A stretch of 64,000 nt of DNA from Candidatus Latescibacterota bacterium (GTDB lineage Bacteria > Latescibacterota > UBA2968): NCBI GenBank assembly GCA_965204375.1, contig OZ241986.1:1504001-1568000 (forward strand). Direction: 5' to 3'. Position numbers and translations under genes: made by a program. Of the stretch, positions 8,293 to 44,318 are shown piece by piece (the stretch's first letter is position 1; every line of letters starts with the position of its first letter). Below the pieces are notes generated by a model, which did not search any database, was not told where the DNA came from, and saw nothing but the letters and a program-made list of their open reading frames with translations.

Positions 8293-9789
8293 ATGCAAAC
8301 TGGATGTGTATATCTCATAGGTGCCGGGCCGGGCGATCCGGAATTGATAACTGTGAAGGGTCTGCGCCTGATTCGGGAAGCCGATGTGATCTTGTATGAC
8401 GGGTTAGCGAATCCCGAATTTTTGAAGGAAGCGCGATGGGAATGCGAGTGTATCAATGTGGAAAAGCGCCCGGGTTTTCAGCGTGTGCAGCAAGATGAGA
8501 TTAACCAGATGATGGTCGATTTCGCCCGAAAAGGGTTGATGGTGGTGCGATTAAAAGGGGGCGATCCCATTGTTTTTGGGCGCGGTGGAGAGGAAGCTGA
8601 AGTACTTAGAAAACACAATATTTCTTTTGAGATTGTGCCGGGTATTACCAGTGCAATAGCAGCACCCGCTTATGCGGGTATTCCCGTAACCCATCGCGGT
8701 ATATCTCCCCAGGTGACGATTGTAACGGGGACAACGGCTTCACTTGAAGGAGAAGGAGAAGTTGATTGGGAGGGGTTGGCAAAAGTGGGCGGTACGCTCC
8801 TGATTTTGATGGGTACGAAAAAACGAAGTGAAATTGCCCGACGCCTCATCGCAGGGGGGCGCCCGCCTGAAACGCCCGTTGCAGCCGTACAGTGGGGGTC
8901 TTTGCCATTACAACGGACTGTGAGGACGACGTTGGGGGAGATGGGCGCTGTCGAGATGACCAATCCCGCGGTCATTGTCGTTGGAAAGGTCGCGGCAATG
9001 GATCTGGATTGGTTTGCGTCTAAGCCCTTGTTCGGAAAAACGATTGCTGTGACGCGGGCGCGCACACAGGCGAGTGAATTGGTACAACAGCTACGAGAGT
9101 TGGGCGCGCAAGTGCTGGAAGTGCCCACTATTGCATTTGCCGAACCCCAAAATTGGCGCGATGTGGATTGTGCCATTGCAGATATTCATGCATTTGATTG
9201 GCTTGTTCTGACGAGTACAAACGGAACCGATCACTTTTTTGAGCGTCTGTTTAAACAAGACCGCGATGTACGCGCATTGGGTGAGGTAAAAATTGCGACT
9301 ATTGGCGCGGCGACATCGGCACGGGTGCGCGAGTGGCGTCTCAATGTAGATCTCGAAGCGGTGAATCGCACGTCAGAAGGTTTGCTCGCGGCTTTTGGCG
9401 CAGATCTTTCGGGACAGCGCTTTTTGTTGCCTCGCCCTGAAGAATCTCGGGATGTACTCGCCAACGGGCTTCGAGAGCACGGTGCTGAAGTTTGTGAAGT
9501 TGTTGTTTACAAAACGGTTATGCCCAAGTACTTGCCAAAAAATTTTTTGCAGTTGGTAGAAAAAGAGACTATTGATCTTATCGCGTTTACGAGTTCTTCT
9601 ACGGTCTTAAATCTGGTGAATTTGCTGAAGAAGACGCGGCAAAATTGGGGATCCTTGCCAGCGGCGTGTATCGGTCCTATCACAGCCCAAACCGCAGTTG
9701 CACAGGGATTTGATGTGGTTGTGGAACTTGACGAAACATCGGTATCTATTTCTGGTCTTGTACAAGCAATTGTGACATATTTTAGATAA
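8293..9789 (+). CDS. cobA: Uroporphyrinogen-III C-methyltransferase / uroporphyrinogen-III synthase fusion (CobA-HemD)
   Basis: GAGPGDPELIT, RLKGGDP and GIPVTHRG, followed by a HemD part (PLFGKTIAVTR, FTSSSTV, CIGPITA). Confidence 0.95.
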   Translation: MQTGCVYLIGAGPGDPELITVKGLRLIREADVILYDGLANPEFLKEARWECECINVEKRPGFQRVQQDEINQMMVDFARKGLMVVRLKGGDPIVFGRGGEEAEVLRKHNISFEIVPGITSAIAAPAYAGIPVTHRGISPQVTIVTGTTASLEGEGEVDWEGLAKVGGTLLILMGTKKRSEIARRLIAGGRPPETPVAAVQWGSLPLQRTVRTTLGEMGAVEMTNPAVIVVGKVAAMDLDWFASKPLFGKTIAVTRARTQASELVQQLRELGAQVLEVPTIAFAEPQNWRDVDCAIADIHAFDWLVLTSTNGTDHFFERLFKQDRDVRALGEVKIATIGAATSARVREWRLNVDLEAVNRTSEGLLAAFGADLSGQRFLLPRPEESRDVLANGLREHGAEVCEVVVYKTVMPKYLPKNFLQLVEKETIDLIAFTSSSTVLNLVNLLKKTRQNWGSLPAACIGPITAQTAVAQGFDVVVELDETSVSISGLVQAIVTYFR

Positions 9790-9873
9790 AAAATGCGGTT
9801 GACATACCTGCTGGTAAGTAGTAAATTTATATAGATGAAGTGCAAACACTTTCATACAACAGGAGGAAGCGTC

Positions 9874-10680
9874 ATGAAACGTTTGATTATTGCGACATGT
9901 TTAGGGCTAGGACTGGTCGGCTCTGCCATTGCTGGACCCCTGACACAGGGTATAGAATTTACGGGCGGCGAGAATAGCCTGGCAGGCCTGGTGCTGCAAC
10001 GCACGCAAAATATTGTTGCCGAAGATGGCGTTTTGAAGCTGCAAGTCTCTATCAATTACGCGCAGAAATTGAAGGGTTATGGTTTTGTGCTGCAGTACGA
10101 TCAATCCAAGTATGAGTTTGTCGAAGCACGCCAAGTTGATCAAAATCTGCTCGATGCGAATAGCGGGCAACCCGCGCTATTTCTCGCGTCTAACAAGACG
10201 CCAGGGCAAGTGGCTGTTGGCGCGATGAAGGTCGATGGGCAGGCTGTCAGTGGCGATGGTGCTTTGGTCGAGTTTACGTTTAATACCACACAGACACCTC
10301 TCGCCTCTGATTTTCAGATCCTCGACGGTGTGATGGTTGATTTGGCTGGCGGTATTGATGCCATTACCAATATTGAAATTGGCTCCCTCAAGCCCATGCC
10401 CCAAGATTACGCCCTCGAACAAAATGTACCAAATCCTTTTAACCCCTCCACGACAATTGAATATCGGTTGCCCGAAGCCGGTGACGTCCAACTGGTGATC
10501 TACAATCTGCTCGGGCAAGAAGTTCGCACCCTAATTCAAGAGACGATGGATGCGGGTTTTCACTCGGTTGTTTGGGATGGCACGGATGAATTTGGCAAGC
10601 AAGTGGCCAGTGGTATTTATATTTATCGCATGTCAGTGGCTGATTTTACCCAGGTTCAGCGCATGATGTTGCTGAAGTAA
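9874..10680 (+). CDS. Secreted protein with cohesin-like domain and FlgD-Ig/T9SS-like C-terminal domain
   Basis: Signal peptide MKRLIIATCLGLG, cohesin-like KGYGFVLQYD...VSGDGALVEFTF, and C-terminal QNVPNPFNPSTTIEY...WDGTD...ASGIY...MMLLK. RBS AGGAGG. Confidence 0.8.
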   Translation: MKRLIIATCLGLGLVGSAIAGPLTQGIEFTGGENSLAGLVLQRTQNIVAEDGVLKLQVSINYAQKLKGYGFVLQYDQSKYEFVEARQVDQNLLDANSGQPALFLASNKTPGQVAVGAMKVDGQAVSGDGALVEFTFNTTQTPLASDFQILDGVMVDLAGGIDAITNIEIGSLKPMPQDYALEQNVPNPFNPSTTIEYRLPEAGDVQLVIYNLLGQEVRTLIQETMDAGFHSVVWDGTDEFGKQVASGIYIYRMSVADFTQVQRMMLLK

Positions 10681-10702
10681 TGGCGCATTCGAATTCGTTT
10701 CG

Positions 10703-10735
10703 AGGCCGCTTCTTTTGAGGCGGCCTTTCTTTTTT
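10703..10735 (+). terminator. Intrinsic terminator
   Basis: AGGCCGCTTC-TTTT-GAGGCGGCCT followed by a T tract. Confidence 0.8.
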
Positions 10736-10748
10736 GGGAGGGAGTGTC

Positions 10749-11795
10749 ATGATTCGCGTTGGACTGGTGGGCTATGGTTTGGGTGGAAAAGTCTTTCACG
10801 CACAATTGATTCAGATGGCGCCAGATCTCGAACTCTATGCGGTTTGTTCGCGTTCATTAGAAAAACGCCAGGATGCAGAGGCTGATTTCCCACAGATCGC
10901 GACGTATGACTCTTTTGACGCGCTATTGGACGATGGTAATATCGATCTCGTTGTGCTGGCGACACCTCACGATACGCATGCGCCGATGGCTATTCAGGCA
11001 ATGGACGCTGGCAAACATCTCGTAACAGATAAAATTATGTGTTTGAATGAGTCTGAAGCGCTGGCTATGATTGAAGCGTCTGAGCGCAATCAGGTGCTTT
11101 TAAGTGTGTATCAGAACCGGCGATGGGATGGCGATTTCTTGACGTTGCAACACATACTCGCAGAAGGGATACTGGGCGATATTTATACTATTGAGTCCAA
11201 TATCACAACTTATGGTGGCCCGCATGTCGGGTGGCGTGCGTGGAAAAAATACGGCGGAGGGCGTGTTCTCGATTGGGGGGCGCATCTGGTAGATCAGGCT
11301 CTCAGACTTTACGGTCCGACAGTTGAAACCGTTTTTGCCGATTTGCAATATCGCTATCCCAAGGACAAGGCCGATGTTGAGGCTCTATCTCTGATTCATC
11401 TGAGATTTGCAAATGGAGTGCGCTATTTTATTGAGTTGGGCACCGCGTGGATGTATGCCAAGCCGCGCTATCATGTGCGCGGCGCGCTCGGAAGTTTTAG
11501 AAAATATGGCATAGACCCTCAAGAAGCGGCGATGAAGTCGGGCGTTTTTGGCGTACTCGTTCCGGAAGACCCTGCGCGTTATCAGTTGCGCGTGGTCAAT
11601 GATCGCGGACAAACTGTAGAGTACCCCGTGTCGCCCCTGTTTGGCAGTTATCGCACGTATTACGATAATGTGGGCGCAGCACTTGTACGTGGGGAAGAAT
11701 TGCTGGTCAAACCAGAAGAATGTCTGGAGGCCATTCGCGTGATTGATGCAATCAGGCTCTCGGCAGAACGAGAAGAGGTCGTCAAGCTGAGATAG
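10749..11795 (+). CDS. Gfo/Idh/MocA oxidoreductase
   Basis: GLVGYGLGGKVFH, AGKHLVTDK, YQNRRWDGDF and DWGAHLVDQ motifs. Confidence 0.9.
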   Translation: MIRVGLVGYGLGGKVFHAQLIQMAPDLELYAVCSRSLEKRQDAEADFPQIATYDSFDALLDDGNIDLVVLATPHDTHAPMAIQAMDAGKHLVTDKIMCLNESEALAMIEASERNQVLLSVYQNRRWDGDFLTLQHILAEGILGDIYTIESNITTYGGPHVGWRAWKKYGGGRVLDWGAHLVDQALRLYGPTVETVFADLQYRYPKDKADVEALSLIHLRFANGVRYFIELGTAWMYAKPRYHVRGALGSFRKYGIDPQEAAMKSGVFGVLVPEDPARYQLRVVNDRGQTVEYPVSPLFGSYRTYYDNVGAALVRGEELLVKPEECLEAIRVIDAIRLSAEREEVVKLR

Positions 11796-11809
11796 AAAAG
11801 GGTATTTTT

Positions 11810-11965
11810 ATGGTGTGGGGCATTGTATTATTTATCATTTTTACGGGTTGTTATCTCGGGCAATGTGTTTCTTCTGGCCTGGGTGAAAAGCGCGGCTGGT
11901 CATTGCAGTGGATCTGTTGGCTGATCACGAGTTTGACGATTCTGATCTGCTATTTCATTGTTTAG
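11810..11965 (+). CDS. Small two-TM membrane protein (51 aa)
   Basis: Manual translation MVWGIVLFIIFTGCYLGQCVSSGLGEKRGWSLQWICWLITSLTILICYFIV, filling the gap between two + strand genes. Confidence 0.55.
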   Translation: MVWGIVLFIIFTGCYLGQCVSSGLGEKRGWSLQWICWLITSLTILICYFIV

Positions 11966-12455
11966 GACCACCATCGTGTTGTTTTGCGAATTTAAACGCC
12001 ATCTCGATAAACCCGATGAAACGTATATGTGCGATTTGGTCGCCTGCGGCACAGATTGGGTTGTCTTGTCTTATGTGTCAAACCAGGCCTGGGAAGTTGC
12101 CGGCGCCCTCTTGCCTGCTGGTTCTCAAACGCTGGCTTTTTATCAAATGGACGTCGCTCATGTTCTGTGGCGAATGTGTGCCCCTTCAGGTAATCTGAAG
12201 GGGCATTTATTTCACATTTGTCGAGATGTGCAGGTGGAAGAAGACAAGGTCAGTTATCTGGATCTGCTTTTGGATATATGGATAAGTTCAGATGGTGTTG
12301 TCGAGGTTTTAGACCGAGAGGATGTAGATGTGTGTTACAGGGAAGGCAAACTGTGTGAAGCCGACTTGAAAGCCATAGCGGCAGAAGAGAAACGAATTGT
12401 GACACACTGGCCCGTGCTGGTGCGCGAGATGGACGCGCTTTTGAGCGACCTATAA
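11958..12455 (+). CDS. DUF402 domain protein
   Basis: FHICRD...YLDLLLDIWIS...EVLDRED acidic motif. Start codon uncertain. Confidence 0.75.
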   Translation: MFRTTIVLFCEFKRHLDKPDETYMCDLVACGTDWVVLSYVSNQAWEVAGALLPAGSQTLAFYQMDVAHVLWRMCAPSGNLKGHLFHICRDVQVEEDKVSYLDLLLDIWISSDGVVEVLDREDVDVCYREGKLCEADLKAIAAEEKRIVTHWPVLVREMDALLSDL

Positions 12456-35267: not shown

Positions 35268-36512
35268 TTACTCTGGTAGCAGTTTGTCGTCGCAAAATTC
35301 CATGAGTTCAATGAGCTTACGGGCAATATCTTGTGCCAGCCGTGCTGTGCGTTCTTCTTCCTCCCATAGTGTTTTTAACTGATTGGGATCCTGGAAATCA
35401 GTTTCTGTTGTATATATCCTGAAAGGCCACCATCTATTCTTGTCGGATTTTAGTTCTATTCCATCCAGTTTCTTTTTGATTTTCTTCCGATTATAGTGTT
35501 TTAGATCAGCAGAAATGCCGTAAAATGATTGCTTATATATGCCTTGCCAATTTACGAGAAGAAGATCCTTTTCGCGAAGATCATTTTTTGTTTTTCTTAA
35601 ATCTGTCTCTATCCACTTTGTATTTCTTATGCACAATCCACCTCCAGATTCATCATATATTTTTATCTTCCAATCGGCAGGACTGCGGGAAAATGGCTCT
35701 TTGCTTTCGATTTCTTCTTTTACCTCTTGAACAAATTTCTTAACGGTTTCTTTGAAGAGGGGGTCATATTTTGAATATATCGCGTGTGCAACCTCTATAT
35801 TTTTCATCATAAGCTTTTGGATGGTCTTCTCCATTTTTTGCATTGTCAAGCCTCCTGTTAGTCCTTTAATGGCAATGATATACTGCTTTATCGTCTCTCT
35901 CAAGATAGGCAGGTCTGCACAATGCTTCTGGCAGGATTCGAGCCAGGGGAGTATATGCTCTTGATAAGAGATAGGGTGATATTTCTTCTTTGTAGAGGCT
36001 TTTTTACCCTCACGGGTCAGAAATAGTACGAGGTTGCTATCAGGCTCGTAGTTGCAATATCGGGTAATCTGATGCTCACCTTCGCCTGCCCCAATTTTGT
36101 TTTCAATTGAAATGTGTCGTGTTCCATCAGTTATGAAGATGTCTATACGCCCGCCTTTTGAATTTTCACCATCTATATGTTTTGGTCCAATGTAGTATTC
36201 CCTGTGCATCTTTGCTTTGCTTTCATCGGGACGAAGTTTACATCCGTTGGACAAACTGTCTGGTAGCAGGGGATCGACAATTTGTTCCAAAAACATCTTC
36301 AAAAACGTTGTTTGCTGGTCGTGGCTGCCTTTAGGGGCGAGCAACTCGGCTATAAAGCGCGAATGCAATTCATCTTCTTTGTATTCAATCTCCAACACGC
36401 GGAACACATTGAAGTTTTCGCCCTTGAGCCGGGCAATTTCCTCATGTTTCTCAATAATTGATCCTGTTGATTGCAGCAGTTGTTTCACTTGCCCAATGAG
36501 TGCTTGTTCCAC
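35268..36512 (-). CDS. PD-(D/E)XK nuclease family protein
   Basis: FNVFRVL, ELHSRFIAELL, GRIDI...IENKI...QITRY; visibly AT-richer than neighbours. Confidence 0.85.
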   Translation of the reverse strand: MEQALIGQVKQLLQSTGSIIEKHEEIARLKGENFNVFRVLEIEYKEDELHSRFIAELLAPKGSHDQQTTFLKMFLEQIVDPLLPDSLSNGCKLRPDESKAKMHREYYIGPKHIDGENSKGGRIDIFITDGTRHISIENKIGAGEGEHQITRYCNYEPDSNLVLFLTREGKKASTKKKYHPISYQEHILPWLESCQKHCADLPILRETIKQYIIAIKGLTGGLTMQKMEKTIQKLMMKNIEVAHAIYSKYDPLFKETVKKFVQEVKEEIESKEPFSRSPADWKIKIYDESGGGLCIRNTKWIETDLRKTKNDLREKDLLLVNWQGIYKQSFYGISADLKHYNRKKIKKKLDGIELKSDKNRWWPFRIYTTETDFQDPNQLKTLWEEEERTARLAQDIARKLIELMEFCDDKLLPE

Positions 36513-36640
36513 AAAAATAACCCTCTATTCAATCCTCGCGTATCCAACCCCACAAGAGATAATGTATCACCTGTCCATTGCAGTTCATCAATTTATAAAA
36601 AAACAGTCAAGGGGAGACCTTGCTCCCACGGTCCAATAGG

Positions 36641-36694
36641 TCAGACCTCTCGACTGTGCTGACAATTTTACTCAAAACCTATATTCACGTCAAG
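36641..36694 (-). promoter_or_regulatory. Sigma-70 promoter module, copy 1
   Basis: Minus strand TTGACG-N17-TAAAAT...GAGGTCTGA. Confidence 0.6.
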
Positions 36695-36701
36695 CGTAAT
36701 T

Positions 36702-37022
36702 TTACGAATCAGGTTGCGAAATTTCGTGTAACTTGTTGAGACGGATTGCATCTTGTGACAGGATGGCTTCCAGCCACTCGTCATTGGAGCAGTTCAGGTA
36801 TTGCCACGCCGCTTCATCGCCGGATCGGACGACAAAAAGACGGCTGCCATCGGGCAGGTATTCGCTCAGGTGATGTGCGATCATGTGAGCACTATATTCG
36901 GTCAGCACTGCCCATGTTGAATCGGTAATCTGAGCACAAGCCGCGTAACTTTGGATAGCCTCGTGGAGGGCGTCGCAATCGCCTCCCCAGACCATATCGT
37001 AAGAGATGATGTAGGCTTCCAT
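36702..37022 (-). CDS. Cas2/VapD-like small ferredoxin-fold protein
   Basis: YIISYD N-terminal motif, STWAV, RLFVV and AAW. Confidence 0.6.
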   Translation of the reverse strand: MEAYIISYDMVWGGDCDALHEAIQSYAACAQITDSTWAVLTEYSAHMIAHHLSEYLPDGSRLFVVRSGDEAAWQYLNCSNDEWLEAILSQDAIRLNKLHEISQPDS

Positions 37023-37104
37023 CGTTGTTTCTCCTTCACTTGCGCGGTCTCGTATTGGGAACCGTTGTTCTGATAACCCATTGAATAGACCTCACAAGAA
37101 TCGC

Positions 37105-37347
37105 TTACCCTTTGAAATAGGTCAGTAAACTGATAATGATAACCGCAACTGCAATGAGCAAAGACAACCATTTTATGGTTTGCCCTTCCACGCGGTTGAT
37201 ATCGCTTTTTAAGTTGGTCTCCACACGGTTGATATCGCTTTTTAAGGTGTTTTCGACGCGGTTAATATCGTTTTTTAAGGAGTTTTCCAGGCCATTGAAC
37301 CCCGCGTTCATCTGGTTGATCAGTTGCTGAAAACGGTCATCTGCCAT
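37105..37347 (-). CDS. Small coiled-coil protein with C-terminal TM (DUF1640/CCDC90-like)
   Basis: Three 11-aa repeats LK(N/S)DINRVE followed by IKWLSLLIAVAVIII. Confidence 0.7.
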   Translation of the reverse strand: MADDRFQQLINQMNAGFNGLENSLKNDINRVENTLKSDINRVETNLKSDINRVEGQTIKWLSLLIAVAVIIISLLTYFKG

Positions 37348-37768: not shown

Positions 37769-37803
37769 AAAAAAAAGCACCCGAATTTCGTCCGGGTGCT
37801 TTC
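37769..37803 (-). terminator. Terminator of the ExbBD-like operon
   Basis: AAAGCACCCG...CGGGTGCTTT hairpin with an A tract on the + strand. Confidence 0.8.
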
Positions 37804-37824
37804 TATTTGTTAAAAAAGGTTATT

Positions 37825-37854
37825 ATCTGCGTCTATCTGCGTTCATCTGCGGAT
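37825..37854. repeat. 10-mer tandem repeat
   Basis: ATCTGCGTCT ATCTGCGTTC ATCTGCGGAT. Confidence 0.6.
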
Positions 37855-37862
37855 GCTTCTTC

Positions 37863-39563
37863 TCACAGCGCGAGGGCAACGCCTATGCCGACGATGGGAA
37901 TGAGCAGGTATTTGAGAATCCCGCTGCGTTTCCCCTGGATGTTCCCGAGGATGGATGTTTCCAATTTTTTATTTCCTGATTTGTAATACAGGCATTCTGC
38001 ACCAGGAGTCGCGGCAATGGCAGTAACGCCGGGCCAAACGGGTTTGATGCTGCCCGTGGGATAGAGAATGATATTTTCGCGATGGCGTTTGTAATCGCCC
38101 ATTTTGACCAGAAGCGCGTATTCTCGTCCAAAAGTAACTTGATCGGGCTGAACAATAGGGCCAAGTTCGTCCCCGACGACGGTTTGCAAGAGAACCGTAT
38201 CCGACCTGGTTTTAGCGGTAGGCAACCACAGGCTGACGCGCGGTGAGATGGGTAGAAAAGTGGGGGCATCGGAAACTCGGAATGAAATGGGAATGGCCAT
38301 GTTTTGCGTATCTTTGAGCATGTAATGGCCTTTGGGAAGGGTGAGAGAAAACTCTTGCTCCCGATTGGCGATATTCTCGTTCAAGATGTGTTCGGCAAGG
38401 GTAGTGAGGCTATCGTACATGGCCTGTTCGTGCGAGGAGGTGGCCGGGGGCACGGGTGCTTCTCGCGTGAAGCGCACCTGTTCAAAGCGCAGGGTTTTGG
38501 GAGGCAGGTTGCGACTGGCGAGATAGGCCGCATTTACGTTGACATCTAATCGACCGAGGCGCGTGTGCCATTGTTCGGCAAAGCGCGTGAGATCGCCCAA
38601 GCGGGACTCGTTTTCCCCTGGAAGGGGATTGGGTTCTTGTTCAATGGGAAAAGGAGAACGCTCTCGGGCTTCTCGGAAAAGCGCGTGCGCTTCTGAGAAG
38701 CGGCGGTATTTGCCGAGCACAATACCATGGTACACATCAATTTGCGCGAGGGCGCGCAGCACGCCGATATCGCTTTGTCCCAGGCGACTCAGCGTGAGTT
38801 CTAATTCGCGCGTCTGGTGGCTATAGTATTTCAGGTCTTCGATAAAAGGCGTCAGGCGCGGGTCGCTGAGGCAGATAGACGCATTGGTTTCAACCGCGGG
38901 GACTGTTTCGCCAATGGCCAGGGCAGCGGTGAGGAGTTGCGCGCTTTCGGCGAGGTATTGGTCTGCGATATCCACGAGACCGGGGATGGACAATTCCGTG
39001 AGTGGTAGCGGATTGCGGGTAAGCCTAATTTCTATGAGTTTGCCACGCGGGGGCAGAAAGAGGTCTTGTTCGATGAGGTTAAAACCGGTTTTGCTGATTT
39101 CGAGGCGGTATTTGCCCACAAAAAGGTCTGACTCATAAGCCACATTGCCGCGTCCGATATTGATAAACCCGGTGATGGTCGTGTCTTGATCTGCAAACCG
39201 AAGGTGGATTTCTGCGCCTAAGGCCGCGAGTTGATCGGATCGTATCTCCAGATGCGCTTTCTGACGTATGAGCGCGATATGCACCGTATCTGCCAAAACG
39301 GTTGTCGTAAATGTGCGCGTCCAGGGCTGGTAGCCGTGTGCATACGCCTGAATTTTATCGCCAATATCCAGTAGCTTTTCTGTGACAAATGGCGTATAAC
39401 CCGCTTCCTGCCCATTGATGAAGACCTGGGCACCTGTGGGTTCTGAGCGAATGTGGATTTTCGTCTTGAAAAGCATCCTCGGCGCAGGCTCTGTTTCTTG
39501 AGCCTGGATGTGGAGCGGTGTGGTCAGCAGGATGCAAAATAAAATGAATCTCAGGGTGTTCAT
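37863..39563 (-). CDS. PEGA-domain exported protein with C-terminal hydrophobic anchor
   Basis: Signal peptide MNTLRFILF, PEGA motif IRSEPTGAQVFING...GYTP, GKYRLEISKTGF, and C-terminal KYLLIPIVGIGVALAL. ATGA overlap with the upstream gene. Confidence 0.8.
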   Translation of the reverse strand: MNTLRFILFCILLTTPLHIQAQETEPAPRMLFKTKIHIRSEPTGAQVFINGQEAGYTPFVTEKLLDIGDKIQAYAHGYQPWTRTFTTTVLADTVHIALIRQKAHLEIRSDQLAALGAEIHLRFADQDTTITGFINIGRGNVAYESDLFVGKYRLEISKTGFNLIEQDLFLPPRGKLIEIRLTRNPLPLTELSIPGLVDIADQYLAESAQLLTAALAIGETVPAVETNASICLSDPRLTPFIEDLKYYSHQTRELELTLSRLGQSDIGVLRALAQIDVYHGIVLGKYRRFSEAHALFREARERSPFPIEQEPNPLPGENESRLGDLTRFAEQWHTRLGRLDVNVNAAYLASRNLPPKTLRFEQVRFTREAPVPPATSSHEQAMYDSLTTLAEHILNENIANREQEFSLTLPKGHYMLKDTQNMAIPISFRVSDAPTFLPISPRVSLWLPTAKTRSDTVLLQTVVGDELGPIVQPDQVTFGREYALLVKMGDYKRHRENIILYPTGSIKPVWPGVTAIAATPGAECLYYKSGNKKLETSILGNIQGKRSGILKYLLIPIVGIGVALAL

Positions 39564-40948
39564 GGGGAGGTGTCCTGTTTTTTGCTGAGCAACGCGCTGC
39601 TGTGCTTTTCTTCGAGTTGACGCGCTTGCACATAGTTGCCCTGACTTTTGGCGATGCGATGAAATTCTTTCCAGTAGCGTTCTGGCGCAATGCGATAGGC
39701 CATTTCCGCGGCCTGGTATGCTCTCGCTCCCACATTTTGCAGGTCGGAGTTGAAATAGGCAATCGCCAGGGTGATCAGGGCTTCGCCGCGGTCTTGCCAT
39801 CCAAAGGATGTCACGGGATAAATGGTTGAAATCGCCTCGCGGTACGCGCCTTCTTTGAGTCTTACACTCGCCAAACTGAGCGAAAGCCCGCCATAGGTAT
39901 CGCACACTCTCGGTTCGTATTGGTTGTGCGCGTATGCGTACTTGGCATATTCAACGGCTCTGGGCAAGTCGTCTCGGTACGCGGTGAAGGCCATGTCGAG
40001 ATAGAGGGCGGCGCGAGAGGTGTCGGATCTCGCATAGACCAAGGCGCGTTGCATGGCGTGGATTGCGCGGTTGGCTTCTTCTTCTTTGCTGTGGCGCAAT
40101 CCCTTGAGGCGGTAGATGGCACAGCGCATGTTATAGCCGCCGTCAAAGCGCGCGGCAGCGAGCACTTGATTGAACCAGTCGGGGTTATCGCCCAAAACGC
40201 CGCGGGAAGATGCGGCGGCAATTTTGGGGATGTAAAAATCGGGTTCTATGCCTTCAAAATTGGCCTGTCCGGCGATCTCGATCAGGTTCAGGCTGTTTTC
40301 GATATAGACGCTTAAATAAGCCTGAAGGGTGTCACTCATGGTGCTGCGTTGCGGCGCGGCATAGACAATTTCCTTTTGCGTTCTGCCGAGAATCGCCATC
40401 CAAATGTCGCGCAGACCACCCTCTGCGAGATGCCATATTCGGTGCAGGGAGTCAATTGTTGCGGGTTGAAAGCGCGTGGGTATCCAGGTGCTGTCTCGCA
40501 ATACTGGCGGGGGCAAATCCAGCGGCAGAGGTTGGCGATTGTTTTCGCGCTCAAGCACGAAGTTGGCACGCGCCATCGCATATTTGACGGTGAGACGTCC
40601 CAATTCGTAGCGAATATCGGGGTCTTGCTCGCGGTCGAGCGCCGTGCGGTAGGCGTCGGCACTTTTTCTGAGCAGGTCCAATCGGTTGGGCACCTCTTGA
40701 CCCGTGTCGTAGGCACGCTCGCCTGCCGTGCCCAGCCAGATATAATAGGCACTGGTAAAGATGAGGGCCTGGTTGCACGCACGCTCAAAATGTGCGACGG
40801 CTTCAATATATCGCCCAAGCGCGTAAGCACTGCGGCCCTGCTCAAAAGACTGATAGGCGAGGCTGTCATCCTTTCCCTGCGCAAAAGAAAGGGCTGGCAA
40901 AATCAAAAAAGCGAAGATAAGGAAGATTTTTTTCATAAGCGACCTCAC
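39560..40948 (-). CDS. Exported TPR-like protein
   Basis: Signal peptide MKKIFLIFAFL (ATG 40936), then Ala/Tyr-rich helical repeats such as FEQGRSAYALGRYIEAVAHFERA. Confidence 0.75.
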   Translation of the reverse strand: MRSLMKKIFLIFAFLILPALSFAQGKDDSLAYQSFEQGRSAYALGRYIEAVAHFERACNQALIFTSAYYIWLGTAGERAYDTGQEVPNRLDLLRKSADAYRTALDREQDPDIRYELGRLTVKYAMARANFVLERENNRQPLPLDLPPPVLRDSTWIPTRFQPATIDSLHRIWHLAEGGLRDIWMAILGRTQKEIVYAAPQRSTMSDTLQAYLSVYIENSLNLIEIAGQANFEGIEPDFYIPKIAAASSRGVLGDNPDWFNQVLAAARFDGGYNMRCAIYRLKGLRHSKEEEANRAIHAMQRALVYARSDTSRAALYLDMAFTAYRDDLPRAVEYAKYAYAHNQYEPRVCDTYGGLSLSLASVRLKEGAYREAISTIYPVTSFGWQDRGEALITLAIAYFNSDLQNVGARAYQAAEMAYRIAPERYWKEFHRIAKSQGNYVQARQLEEKHSSALLSKKQDTSP

Positions 40949-42312
40949 GAATTGCTCAGGGCGCGGTTGAGAAAGCGGATGCCCCTGCGCACTTCGGTTT
41001 CTATGTGAAGGGCTTTGTCTATGCCCGAGCGTGCAAAAATCTGAATGTCGTCGAGTTGGCCCAGCCGAAATGTGAGAACAAATGCAACACCGTCGGCAAA
41101 TTGTATTCTGGCTTTGTCTGGAGCCAATGTGAGTTGGGCATTTTCATATATTCTGCTTTGAGGCGTTTTCAGGCGAGAAAGTGCGCGCTGGATACGGGTC
41201 AGGCGCACGAGTTCTGCCGAGAGACCAGCCGATGTATGAAAGTTGGAAAAACCAATGCGTCCAGCAGGCCGGTAGCCTTTGAGATCGGTGGATTCTGCTT
41301 GTTGCTCGGGCTGATCTTTGCCTGCGCTCGAGCCAGTTGATGGCAATGTGGCAGGGGCGGGCATACTCATAGTGGCGCGAGCGACATGGACTTCTGGCCG
41401 CGAACCAAAAAACGACGATGGGTTCGCACCTCTGTCCATGTTGGGTGTCGAGACGCGAGGCGGTGTTTTCAATCCACCGAGCGACATGCCGAGCGGCTTA
41501 TCGAGTTGGCGCGGGATATCGGGTAGTGATGCAAGTGCCAGTTTCGGTTTGTCCGGTAGCGCGATTTTGGGACGCGGCGCAGGCTCTGGGGCAGCCTGTA
41601 CCCGGGGTTCTGGATCCGGTTTTGTTACGCTGGCGTCCTCCCGCGTGTTTTTGCTCATGTCAAAGATGCCCTGCGCGCTAACGAGCATTTCTTCAAAATT
41701 TGTGACAATGGCTTTGAATGCCCGCCCCTCCTGAGGGGGACTGAGTGCCAATAGCAAGACGATGCCCAGTGCAAACGCACCGGCCAATGCGGGCAAAAAA
41801 CGTTGTTGTGTGCGTTGAATAGGGGCATAGGATAAGCGAATGGACTGCGGTTGAGAAGCTGGCACCTGGACAGGGACAAGGGCGATGGCGATTTCTATTT
41901 CATGTCGGCGATTGGGGTAATGCGTCCAAAGTTTGGAAAGCCCCAGATAATTCTGCTTGGTCACAAGCGCGCATGCTTCGTGGAAGATATGGCCCTTGTA
42001 GAAGCGGTTGATAATTTCGCGTGAGGGCAACTTGAAATGGCTCGATGGCGAAATCTGTCCTATGCGCTCCTCGATGCTGTCAGTTTCCGATGGAGGGACA
42101 TACCCCAGGTCTCGCAACTGTTTGAAGAGGTGTTCGATGGCCCGATGATAGTCGCTTGTAAAGTCTTCGGACGAGGGATAATTACATGCTCGGCGCGCCT
42201 CAGATAAGTTGCGAGCGCGCAGTGTGGCAGATAACACGCCAAAGAGTTTGGGATGATCCCGTCGCATGCTTTCAGCAGCACTCTGAATCAAATTTTTTTC
42301 ACGGGGAGACAT
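40945..42312 (-). CDS. TonB/TolA-like single-TM protein with extended cytoplasmic N-terminus
   Basis: About 170-aa soluble N-terminus, TM FLPALAGAFALGIVLLLAL, Pro-rich linker KPDPEPRVQAAPEPAPRPK, globular C-terminus. Follows the exbD-like gene. Confidence 0.55.
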   Translation of the reverse strand: MSPREKNLIQSAAESMRRDHPKLFGVLSATLRARNLSEARRACNYPSSEDFTSDYHRAIEHLFKQLRDLGYVPPSETDSIEERIGQISPSSHFKLPSREIINRFYKGHIFHEACALVTKQNYLGLSKLWTHYPNRRHEIEIAIALVPVQVPASQPQSIRLSYAPIQRTQQRFLPALAGAFALGIVLLLALSPPQEGRAFKAIVTNFEEMLVSAQGIFDMSKNTREDASVTKPDPEPRVQAAPEPAPRPKIALPDKPKLALASLPDIPRQLDKPLGMSLGGLKTPPRVSTPNMDRGANPSSFFGSRPEVHVARATMSMPAPATLPSTGSSAGKDQPEQQAESTDLKGYRPAGRIGFSNFHTSAGLSAELVRLTRIQRALSRLKTPQSRIYENAQLTLAPDKARIQFADGVAFVLTFRLGQLDDIQIFARSGIDKALHIETEVRRGIRFLNRALSNS

Positions 42313-42320
42313 ATTCTATT

Positions 42321-42851
42321 TTACAACTTTCTTTTTTGACTTTCAAGCCCCCATTGCACAGTCTTAAATCCGCTGTTGTTGAGGGCGTCGTACACACCAA
42401 CGGTATAAGTCACGGTTGCATCGCGTTCAAAATAGAGGCGCACCAAAATGTCATTGGGCGCAAATCCATGTTGCGCTTGTAGTGTGAGTAAAGCTTTTTT
42501 TACGGACAAAAATACAGCGCGTTCAATGCCGATCTGGTCGTTGTCTGCGCGGTCTTGAAAGACCATGTGTTCTTCGGTGGCAACGCCGCCTTTGTCAAAT
42601 TGCACATAGGACTTCCCGATGATGATCTGTAAAAATCGTTCATCTGTGGGGTGGGGAGCAGAGCCTTTTTCATCGGGTGCTTTGATAAAATTGAGTTTTT
42701 GTGCGTGAACAAAGCGGTTGTGCAAATTGGCGAGATGGGTTTGCCATACGTTCTGTATAATAAAAAATGTAAGCAACAAAAACAAGACGTCAATAAACCC
42801 TTCCCCAGTGTCTAAAAGTGCTGCCAAAGGTCGCCTATTGCGATGTCTCAC
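42321..42851 (-). CDS. ExbD/TolR family protein
   Basis: Basic N-terminus, TM with conserved Asp (FIDVLFLLLTFFII), C-terminal VGVYDALNNSGF. Confidence 0.8.
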   Translation of the reverse strand: MRHRNRRPLAALLDTGEGFIDVLFLLLTFFIIQNVWQTHLANLHNRFVHAQKLNFIKAPDEKGSAPHPTDERFLQIIIGKSYVQFDKGGVATEEHMVFQDRADNDQIGIERAVFLSVKKALLTLQAQHGFAPNDILVRLYFERDATVTYTVGVYDALNNSGFKTVQWGLESQKRKL

Positions 42852-42852
42852 G

Positions 42853-44127
42853 TCAATCTCCTATTTCTTTCTTTTCGTCTGTATCTATCTGATAAAAGTG
42901 CTGAATCAGGTTGAGCATGCGCGCCCGATGTTGCAGACTGCGGGCTTTGGTTTTGCGTATGAGGATCATGGATAGAATGCGCCCGAGAAACCCAATGGCT
43001 GTGGTAACGAGGGCAAAGTTGATATAATGCGCCATTTTGAGCTGGGTTTGAGCTGGGCCTTCACCGACTTTCATGGTGTCTTCTAAAATTTTGAAGGCGT
43101 CTATCATGCCAACAACCGTGCCCAAAAGACCCATGGAGAGCGATAAAAGCCCCAACATGCCAAATCCTTCGGATAGGCGATCTTCAATTTCATCAAAGAG
43201 AAGATAGATTTTGTCGGTGCATCGCTCGACCAATCGCGCCTGGTCAGATGCGATTTCAGATTCGACAGATGTGAGAATGGCATAGAGTTCTGTATTTTCA
43301 GACAGGGCATAATCGGCGTTGTATTGCCCGCCCCATAGCAGGTTAATGCCCTGCTTCTGAACGATTTGCGCGTCGGAATTCGTAAAGAAACGGTCGGGGG
43401 ATAAGTCGTGAGATAAGACCTGAGCATAGCGCACAACCATATAGAAGGGCAGGGCAATCAAGAGCAGGATCAAAACAGTAGAAAGTGGACCGCTGATGTT
43501 GGAGATATATCGTCCGATAGATTCGGCCAGATCACCGCCGCGAACAACTGTGGGTACGGCATTGTCGGCTGCAAACGCGATTTGGATGTCCTCAAACTTG
43601 TATTCGACCATCTGCGTATTAGGCGCAATGGGACCATCGGCTGTCTGGTCAAAGTCCATCGCATAGCTTCGGTTGTTGTACTGAAAGCTCAAATCGTCGA
43701 TCACGGCGCTGTGGCTGGCGTTGCGCGTGCGGATGACGAGGCTATCGACGGACAGGTCGGGTATTGCGATCCATTCGCGTTGCGTACCAGCGTGATAGGT
43801 CGAATCACGCCCCTGTGTGTGTACGATCACGGCGATGGGTAAAAAGCGATCTACATTCTTGAAGCGAATGTCCGCGACTGCAATTTTTTGTTCGGGATTG
43901 TCAGGTTGTTGGAATGTGACGGTAAGTGCTTTCCAAAAAGTTCCCCCCTGAAGGACTTGCCCGCCTTGCAGCCCAGTGATGGCTCCATCGAGCCAGATTG
44001 CCGCTTTTGTGCAGATATAGAGGCCGACAAAGAGGGTAGCGAGATAGAGTGCTACCTGGGCAATGGGACTTTTTTTTAGAATGGGATGATTTAGAATCTG
44101 TGCCATGTATTCTCGGTATTTGGACAT
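42853..44127 (-). CDS. MotA/TolQ/ExbB proton-channel protein with large N-terminal periplasmic domain
   Basis: GLLGTVVGMIDAF and ALVTTAIG motifs; extra TM plus about 170-aa beta-rich domain. Confidence 0.88.
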   Translation of the reverse strand: MSKYREYMAQILNHPILKKSPIAQVALYLATLFVGLYICTKAAIWLDGAITGLQGGQVLQGGTFWKALTVTFQQPDNPEQKIAVADIRFKNVDRFLPIAVIVHTQGRDSTYHAGTQREWIAIPDLSVDSLVIRTRNASHSAVIDDLSFQYNNRSYAMDFDQTADGPIAPNTQMVEYKFEDIQIAFAADNAVPTVVRGGDLAESIGRYISNISGPLSTVLILLLIALPFYMVVRYAQVLSHDLSPDRFFTNSDAQIVQKQGINLLWGGQYNADYALSENTELYAILTSVESEIASDQARLVERCTDKIYLLFDEIEDRLSEGFGMLGLLSLSMGLLGTVVGMIDAFKILEDTMKVGEGPAQTQLKMAHYINFALVTTAIGFLGRILSMILIRKTKARSLQHRARMLNLIQHFYQIDTDEKKEIGD

Positions 44128-44254
44128 TTAATAGGGAATCTCCGCGTATTAGTATTAGAAACTAATTTGCGAAATTTAAGGCTTTATTCCGAAATTATCC
44201 ACCAAAACTTTTAACCATACGGGGTGAAATTGATTCGCTTCTGACAACTGAAAG

Positions 44255-44301
44255 AAGCCCCATCTGAAATTGCTTGCACGATCTCGGATGGGGCTTTTTT
44301 T
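44255..44301. terminator. Hairpin terminator downstream of the cupin gene
   Basis: AAGCCCCATCTGA...TCGGATGGGGCTTTTTTT. Confidence 0.7.
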
Positions 44302-44318
44302 ATACTCATCATTTCTTT

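Follow-up and report, generated by a model that had tools for sequence, protein, structure and literature searches.

The stretch analysed here is a 64,000-nucleotide window of a Candidatus Latescibacterota bacterium (assembly GCA_965204375.1, contig OZ241986.1, positions 1,504,001 to 1,568,000 of the forward strand), whose host genome spans 6.34 Mb on a single contig. Five minus-strand open reading frames (ORFs), termed g1 to g5, fill positions 37863-44127 of this window. We favour, with moderate confidence, the reading that this operon encodes an accessory, lineage-restricted, ion-driven envelope motor of the ExbBD/TolQR class, which works with partners of its own as a force-transducing or signalling module. 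A preliminary description of the window had proposed a dedicated PMF-driven machine unlike Ton and Tol, for surface transport, motility, secretion or sensing; the use of PMF and each of these outputs are presumptive. A conserved gene unit, a divergent stator and the lack of a TonB_C domain support that proposal in part. The five genes are as follows.

42853..44127, minus strand: g1, 424 amino acids (aa), putative stator A-subunit of the ExbB/TolQ/MotA family
42321..42851, minus strand: g2, 176 aa, ExbD/TolR-like B-subunit
40945..42312, minus strand: g3, 455 aa, bitopic protein
39560..40948, minus strand: g4, 462 aa, exported helical protein
37863..39563, minus strand: g5, 566 aa, exported PEGA protein

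The genes run in the order g1-g2-g3-g4-g5 and are tightly packed, with 1 bp between g1 and g2, 8 bp between g2 and g3, and 4-bp overlaps at both g3/g4 and g4/g5, in agreement with the earlier coordinates and spacing. For g5, the longest ORF opens at 39905 inside g4, and the start conserved among orthologues is MNTLRF at 39563. Conservation of the gene neighbourhood was borne out: the five-gene order is kept in 18/18 genome loci, all from Latescibacterota, and in three metagenome contigs, which agree as far as they reach (L057 covers g1-g2-g3-g4, and L059 covers the end of g2 followed by g3-g4-g5). At the most divergent locus, L035, the order persists at identities of 58/67/33/53/37% (g1/g2/g3/g4/g5), while the flanking cupin gene is gone; the five genes therefore travel as a unit. 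The ratio of nonsynonymous to synonymous substitution rates (dN/dS) against the 63-87%-identical orthologous locus L031 was 0.09 for g1, 0.085 for g2, 0.29 for g3, 0.19 for g4 and 0.28 for g5. All five genes are under purifying selection, and therefore represent real, constrained genes.

Judged by its sequence, g1 is a member of the MotA/TolQ/ExbB family. It matches Pfam MotA_ExbB (PF01618) over residues 321-403 with an E value of 6.3e-11 and 42.6 bits (gathering cut-off 22.9), and its L035 orthologue scores 45.1 bits. The motifs that had first suggested an ExbB/TolQ-like stator, GLLGTVVGM in the third transmembrane (TM) segment and ALVTTAIG in the fourth, are invariant in 7/7 g1 relatives, and the assignment stands. 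In addition, a g1 family profile aligns to TM2-TM3 of TolQ in Protein Data Bank (PDB) structures, placing GLLGTVVGM on GLFGTVWGI and ALVTTAIG on ALIATAIG.

The architecture of g1 is unusual. We delineated TM1 (~22-44), a periplasmic beta-sandwich (~57-196), TM2 (~214-232), cytoplasmic helices, TM3 (~324-345) and TM4 (~372-390). Hydropathy gives four hydrophobic segments, and the AlphaFold2 (AF2) model, a monomer built on a 7-row alignment, places a beta-sandwich at 57-196 between the first two of them, with a predicted local distance difference test (pLDDT) score of 70-90. The protein would therefore carry, ahead of a three-TM core like that of ExbB, an additional TM segment and a periplasmic domain of ~150 aa. 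Foldseek returned 0 matches of the model to the PDB at E ≤ 0.001; the best local matches were jelly rolls of lectins, CBM32 and F-type lectins (probability 0.91-0.99, E 0.014-0.04). The periplasmic insert (48-212) had no usable match in the ESM Atlas, and the g1 family, which comprises 10 clusters among 5.8 billion proteins, contains all relatives of the insert.

Several measures set this stator apart from canonical ExbB and TolQ. g1 departs from the canonical three-TM topology with its short periplasmic N-terminal end, having four hydrophobic segments and the ~150-aa insert. Against the NCBIfam models it scores 17.6 for exbB (TIGR02797, cut-off 206.2) and 24.5 for tolQ (TIGR02796, cut-off 221). 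As a control, we scored two canonical paralogues of the same genome, which reached 69.7/97.7 and 64.7/88.6 bits (exbB/tolQ) and thus also fall below the cut-offs. For this phylum the NCBIfam cut-off by itself is thus too stringent, but g1 is about four times weaker than these copies. In a 13-row tree of six g1-family members, four paralogues of the same genome and E. coli TolQ, ExbB and MotA (AglR, ZorA and GldL lie outside this sampling), the g1 family forms one clade with support of 98/97 and a stem of 2.57 substitutions per site, outside the E. coli trio. The tree does not settle where this clade falls among the same-genome paralogues, and the program gave a long-branch warning. The proposed separation from canonical ExbB/TolQ is supported with respect to the sampled E. 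coli sequences and by the scores (tolQ 24.5 versus 97.7/88.6 bits).

The second gene carries the TM motif GFIDVLFLLL, which aligns with PFIDVMLVLL of E. coli ExbD and contains an Asp (Asp21) invariant in 7/7 sequences. The earlier identification of an ExbD-like protein with a TM Asp is upheld by this residue, with a Pfam ExbD match that is sub-threshold. By hhalign, residues 21-168 of g2 pair with 22-130 of E. coli ExbD (107 columns, 29% identity, E 0.0037) with a probability of only 8.9, so that the two proteins appear to align end to end, though weakly. The periplasmic domain of g2 is ~35 aa longer than that of E. coli ExbD, and the NCBIfam models gave no match to g2.

The third protein, g3, shares the layout of TonB and TolA, namely a TM helix, a Pro-rich linker and a globular C-terminal domain (C-domain) encoded next to motor genes, but not their homology. 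Its AF2 model, built on a 10-row alignment, divides into four parts.

g3 residues 1-145: helical domain, cytoplasmic by topology (AF2 pLDDT ~90)
g3 residues ~172-190: TM helix (hydropathy and AF2)
g3 residues ~215-342: disordered Pro-rich linker (AF2 pLDDT <50)
g3 residues 345-455: alpha/beta C-domain with a strand, short helices, five strands and a long helix (AF2 pLDDT 80-90)

Residues 150-350 contain 12-18% Pro around a single hydrophobic TM segment. Searches of Pfam (E ≤ 1) and NCBIfam assigned g3 to no family and gave no TonB_C, vWA or anti-sigma match; the N-terminal domain (N-domain) alone matched 0 NCBIfam families at E ≤ 10. Foldseek gave 0 PDB matches at E ≤ 0.001, with TonB and TolA absent from the 50 rows listed, and a PDB sequence-profile search produced only a chance spidroin match (E 0.36). 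We accordingly describe the C-domain as a predicted novel alpha/beta fold. Among 1.84 billion proteins, a search at E ≤ 1e-3 yielded only 9 representatives of the g3 family. A single-TM, Pro-rich partner had been foreseen and called TonB-like; the TM segment, the Pro content and the lack of TonB_C agree with this, whereas the likeness to TonB extends to layout only, and the 145-aa cytoplasmic domain had gone unmentioned.

One explanation of this layout is that the operon is a fast-evolving extra Ton system, in which g3 would be a very divergent TonB energising receptors encoded elsewhere. The genome offers a setting for it, with 20 matches to TonB-dependent receptor barrels and several TonB paralogues, and the succession of ExbB, ExbD and a TM/Pro-rich/C-domain protein with a TPR-like neighbour is a common Ton operon layout, as in the canonical TPR-ExbB-ExbD-ExbD-TonB-TPR cluster elsewhere in this genome. 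However, the 13 genomic matches to Pfam TonB_C include 0 in the operon, no TonB or TolA appears among the listed Foldseek matches, and hhalign of g3 with the same genome's own 215-aa TonB gave a probability of 0.5. The g3 TM helix has no conserved His, its 145-aa cytoplasmic domain is foreign to TonB, and g1 carries an extra TM segment and a periplasmic domain. We therefore regard an extra Ton system as improbable. The operon itself encodes no TonB-dependent receptor, TolB, Pal or OmpA/MotB domain that Pfam or NCBIfam could detect in any of the five proteins, confirming the absence of these components (including an OmpA-type MotB domain) reported at the outset.

The genome holds further motor genes. 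Two orphan MotA_ExbB genes could be further uncharacterised motor systems. The first (L016, G000:C1:318468-321779) encodes 261 aa, scores 41.8 bits against Pfam and is flanked by ORFs that by eye look FHA-like and by another whose DxSGS motif, again by eye, resembles vWA; the second (L017, G000:C1:518493-521732) encodes 253 aa, scores 29.5 bits and is followed by a small single-TM ORF.

The two distal genes encode exported partners. g4 opens with a signal-like segment and contains one weak TPR-like motif at 35-58; its best Pfam TPR match was TPR_2 (0.0077, 16.7 bits, below the cut-off of 27). A PDB profile search returned designed TPRs alone, over residues 18-105 (best E 6.8e-4). The relatives of g4 form 21 clusters among 5.8 billion proteins, none functionally named, and 3/21 (36-38% identity) carry precomputed TPR Pfam domains; a degenerate TPR fold is therefore likely. 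The exported character once ascribed to this protein fits, but in this genome the TPR assignment stays sub-threshold (16.7 versus 27 bits). g5 was correctly recognized as an exported PEGA protein with a C-terminal anchor: it matches Pfam PEGA (PF08308) over residues 35-88 with E 1.6e-7 and 31.5 bits (cut-off 20.8), and its L035 orthologue reaches 47.5 bits in two stretches. PEGA is followed by a helical middle part that is conserved (GKYRRFSEAH block), then by a C-terminal region rich in beta structure and a hydrophobic segment at 548-566 preceded by basic residues. A PDB sequence-profile search with g5 found nothing at E ≤ 10. Look-alikes in the ESM Atlas are PEGA/TPR proteins of Myxococcota and Krumholzibacteriota of 243-348 aa (feature scores 0.85-0.90), a likeness that we take as a lead only; unlike these, g5 has 566 aa, with an extra beta-rich C-terminal region and the terminal hydrophobic anchor.

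To place the operon within the phylum, we searched 168 Latescibacterota genomes with a g3 profile and found 22 positive. These comprise 19/20 other genomes of the genus and 2/3 in a family of another order, against 0/10 in other genera of the family, 0/22 in the sister family and 0/112 over eleven further families. In G001, a member of the genus that is 97% complete, the cupin gene is retained and unrelated genes occupy the operon site. This patchy distribution indicates that the system is accessory, through loss or transfer. It also bears on a Tol-Pal equivalent serving outer-membrane tethering or division. In its favour, a genome search for TolB_N at E ≤ 0.001 was negative and g4 could replace CpoB; the operon, however, encodes no Pal/OmpA domain, and the idea seems barely credible. 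As a Tol-Pal replacement we rejected it, since absence from 146/168 phylum genomes and from G001 does not fit a housekeeping role. A Zorya-like or other defence system was likewise rejected: in PADLOC, 4/5 proteins had no match at E ≤ 0.1, and g4 had a weak Cas8b match (0.0057, 13.7 bits) that we took as chance.

The variant loci inform on how the parts relate. At L035, a 221-aa ORF on the plus strand (L035:10012-10677) lies between g2 and g3 and ends 30 bp before g3. It matches the extracytoplasmic function (ECF) sigma-70 model TIGR02937 with E 1.5e-10 and 41 bits (cut-off 42.9) over positions 7-165/165, and its relatives amount to one 97%-identical cluster in 5.8 billion proteins. A sigma gene followed by an anti-sigma gene is the classic order, and its occurrence here hints that the cytoplasmic domain of g3 is regulatory. 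This raises an alternative, trans-envelope signalling, in which g3 would be an anti-sigma-type regulator that senses g4/g5, is energised by g1/g2, and holds or releases a sigma factor through its N-domain. In all lineages that domain is conserved, and it is large and modelled with confidence. A second ExbB-ExbD cluster of the genome (L014, G000:C1:3881771-3885133; TonB-like-ExbB-ExbD) is followed by a 202-aa ORF that resembles an ECF sigma factor by eye and would be a second case of motor and sigma genes side by side. By contrast, the sigma-like gene occurs in 1/4 lineages examined, and L059 runs straight from g2 to g3. The best tblastn match to it had an E value of 0.38 in the window and the other 17 loci, and none was found in the window's genome at E ≤ 0.01. 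Moreover, the N-domain of g3 matches no anti-sigma family (Pfam, NCBIfam) and no PDB fold, and hhalign of g3 with the sigma-like ORF gave 0.09. We consider signalling of this kind unlikely, though it deserves to be kept in view. Residues ~20-70 of g3 had looked by eye like region 4 of sigma factors, a likeness dropped on the same hhalign result with the L035 sigma-like ORF (probability 0.09).

A different arrangement is found at L056 (G079:C539:1-3275), where three genes follow one another: one like g3 but with a short N-terminal end (341 aa), one like g4 (470 aa), and the opening part of one like g5, which has no PEGA. In this genome (G079, 95% complete), the ORF directly upstream of the triad is unlike g2 by eye, and the best score of the g1 profile is 20.8 bits. 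It therefore looks as if the g3 C-domain, g4 and the g5 core make up the conserved periplasmic module, which either gained the dedicated motor and the additional domains or lost them.

Two other loci depart in detail from the window. At L030 (G009), ~870 bp are inserted between g1 and g2 (9236-10124) and g3 is split into two overlapping frames of 329 aa and 196 aa (10663-12025), which may represent decay of the operon. At L032, the g2-g3 spacer has grown to ~550 bp (9967-10514) and contains a CCTTTTGTG-type short-repeat run and an A/T-flanked palindrome.

How far does the operon resemble known machines? As in Ton (ExbB-ExbD-TonB) and Tol (TolQ-TolR-TolA), g1 has the GxxGTVxG and TT/AT helices, g2 has the TM Asp, the third gene encodes a TM segment, a Pro-rich linker and a globular C-domain, a TPR-like gene lies near, and the genes are tightly packed. 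In contrast to both systems, g1 has an extra TM segment and a beta-sandwich and scores 17.6-24.5 bits, versus 64.7-97.7 for the genome's own canonical copies; g3 is without TonB_C, TolA domain III and the TM His, and has the 145-aa cytoplasmic domain; and the operon includes no receptor, TolB or Pal.

The Myxococcus Agl-Glt machinery pairs a TolQR-type motor with bitopic Pro-rich proteins bearing cytoplasmic domains (GltG/GltJ) and with TPR-rich Glt proteins. By this analogy, already drawn in the preliminary description, the operon might be a pared-down Agl-Glt/Nfs-type machine for gliding or surface transport, as it too would combine a TolQR-like motor, a bitopic Pro-rich protein with a cytoplasmic domain and TPR-like periplasmic proteins. 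However, it has only five genes, compared with more than ten for Agl-Glt, encodes no outer-membrane components, and has no barrel, adhesin or MglA-type partner in or next to it. We found no sequence relation to Agl-Glt and no sequence match outside a few Latescibacterota lineages, the comparison including no genome-wide search for Glt homologues. We hold a gliding machine to be highly unlikely.

Closer parallels exist in recent work. Williams-Jones et al. 2025 (PMC12204202) describe TolQR-like motors that adjoin transducers with a TM helix, a Pro-rich linker and a non-TonB C-domain (vWA), together with an uncharacterised TPR gene. In their account, TonB, TolA and the vWA transducers share SHLS/His as the signature of their contact with the motor, for which a 5:2 stoichiometry is stated. 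The operon likewise combines a TolQR-like motor, a protein with a non-TonB C-domain and a TPR gene. The vWA transducers, however, have a vWA C-domain and keep SHLS/His, whereas g3 has neither; in addition, g3 carries a domain on the cytoplasmic side, and a PEGA protein joins the set. According to a second paper (PMC12505986), A-subunits of 'generic ion transporters' carry uncharacterised N-terminal appendages, for example DUF2341 and DUF3450. g1 resembles these in having an ExbB-like core with an added N-terminal domain; it differs in that its insert matches neither (no g1 match to DUF2341 or DUF3450 in Pfam at E ≤ 1) and has relatives in 10 clusters only.

The operon thus probably represents a so far undescribed variation on envelope machines of the Ton/Tol kind. 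Database names of g1 and g4 relatives are 'hypothetical protein' or a generic ExbB/TolQ label only, and our literature search found no description of an ExbB/PEGA/TPR/TonB-like operon, including for Latescibacteria. The earlier suggestion of an undescribed system applies in this sense to the operon family, but the wider class is already in print, as PMC12204202 and PMC12505986 show. Motors of the ExbBD/TolQR type are increasingly seen as a general power source of the envelope beyond iron uptake and division, and each new set of partners is another route from inner-membrane ion flow to work. In the present case, relatives of g3, g4, most of g5 and the g1 insert are confined to a few uncultured Latescibacterota lineages that turn up in coral and sponge metagenome and metatranscriptome runs.

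We propose the following working for the favoured motor. g1 and g2 would form the membrane stator, possibly as a 5:2 assembly by analogy with solved ExbBD, TolQR and MotAB, and ions would pass the invariant Asp21 of g2 and the Thr-bearing TM3 and TM4 of g1. Five lectin-like beta-sandwiches fused to g1 could then ring the periplasmic face. Going by layout and synteny, the work of the stator would be handed to g3 through its TM helix, Pro-rich linker and new C-domain, which may act on, sense or be held by g4 and g5, the latter presumably anchored in a membrane through its 19 C-terminal residues. On the cytoplasmic side, the 145-aa domain of g3 could provide an input or output, possibly regulatory, and suggests two-way coupling. 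The beta-sandwich and PEGA domains may contact glycan or wall polymer; together they favour, over a TonB-dependent receptor, a ligand that is a glycan or belongs to the cell wall or surface layer. Should the proteins assemble in this way, the operon would serve as a small model, five genes in all, of the way in which an arm other than TonB engages a stator in the absence of His/SHLS, and as a candidate for a symbiosis-linked envelope function. A bolder extension, which we consider a long shot, is a mechano-signalling machine: the motor with its lectin-like ring would pull via g3 on a glycan-bound PEGA/TPR complex, and the 145-aa domain of g3 would control a sigma factor. If true, this would be energised cell-surface signalling without TonB and without a TonB-dependent receptor, with the sigma factor still in cis in one lineage.

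Several observations weigh against the favoured motor. The membrane part of the g1 model is of low confidence, with pLDDT <50 from residue 198, and the lectin-like fold of the insert, with its Foldseek E values of 0.014-0.04, is a lead. g2 falls below the gathering cut-off of Pfam ExbD (PF02472; 20.2 bits, E 6.6e-4, cut-off 25.4). A Glu in the last TM helix of ExbB and TolQ matters functionally; in our alignment, this TM4 column holds Glu in both canonical paralogues and in ExbB and TolQ of E. coli, and Phe in g1. Over 9 full-length rows, the TM columns of g3 are without conserved His or Ser, with His only in L035/P0013, while the same genome's own TonB has the TM His; with its TM helix lacking the His/SHLS motif, g3 may therefore not dock on the stator as TonB does. 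The three partners g3, g4 and g5 appear to be tied to g1 and g2 by synteny alone, and the G079 triad, which stands without a g1-type motor, suggests that the partners might not strictly need one.

We also examined the boundaries and expression of the operon. Two features flank it.

37772..37804, minus strand: intrinsic terminator 3' of g5, with a 14-bp stem containing 6 GC pairs, then a T-run
44128..44318, minus strand: upstream intergenic region of 191 bp, carrying a hairpin at ~44295-44250 and the presumed operon promoter

Terminators had been placed on both sides. The downstream one was confirmed (37804-37772); the upstream one, at 44255, is a hairpin that follows and ends the upstream cupin gene, has a weak U tract (UUCUUUC) and drew no call from the terminator scanner. 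The upstream intergenic region folds with a minimum free energy of -46.3 kcal/mol (z -2.87), and a sigma-70 consensus scan of 44128..44318 reported no promoter site.

Contigs of four metatranscriptome runs from three studies, labelled coral and sponge metagenomes, cover 23-27/30 operon bins at 90-99% identity and bridge all four gene junctions. Contigs of X8 (41719-43299) span g3/g2/g1 and those of X17 (40891-41231) span g4/g3, while the g5/g4 junction is bridged by contigs X8, X16, X17 and X18; runs with small shares, X19 and X20 among them, do not enter this evidence. DNA carry-over into such libraries is possible, and one contig does not equal a single transcript; the coverage is consistent with expression in host-associated communities and falls short of proof.

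Just past the g5 stop, at 37825-37855 on the plus strand, lies a 31-nt element of three ~10-nt units (ATCTGCGTYY ... ATCTGCGGAT). The genome contains 49 copies at ≤3 mismatches (31 forward, 18 reverse), 1 of them in the window, compared with 0 for a reversed-pattern control. RNA-library contigs stack and break at the edges of the element (X8 depth 577, loose ends 37823/37858), which looks like a dispersed intergenic repeat of the repetitive extragenic palindromic (REP) type. Further downstream, an 80-aa ORF on the minus strand (37105-37347) contains about 4 tandem copies of an ~11-residue repeat (NRVEN/TxLKSDI) and is hydrophobic towards its C-terminus. Only some members of the genus retain the stretch at 35268-37347, downstream of the operon.

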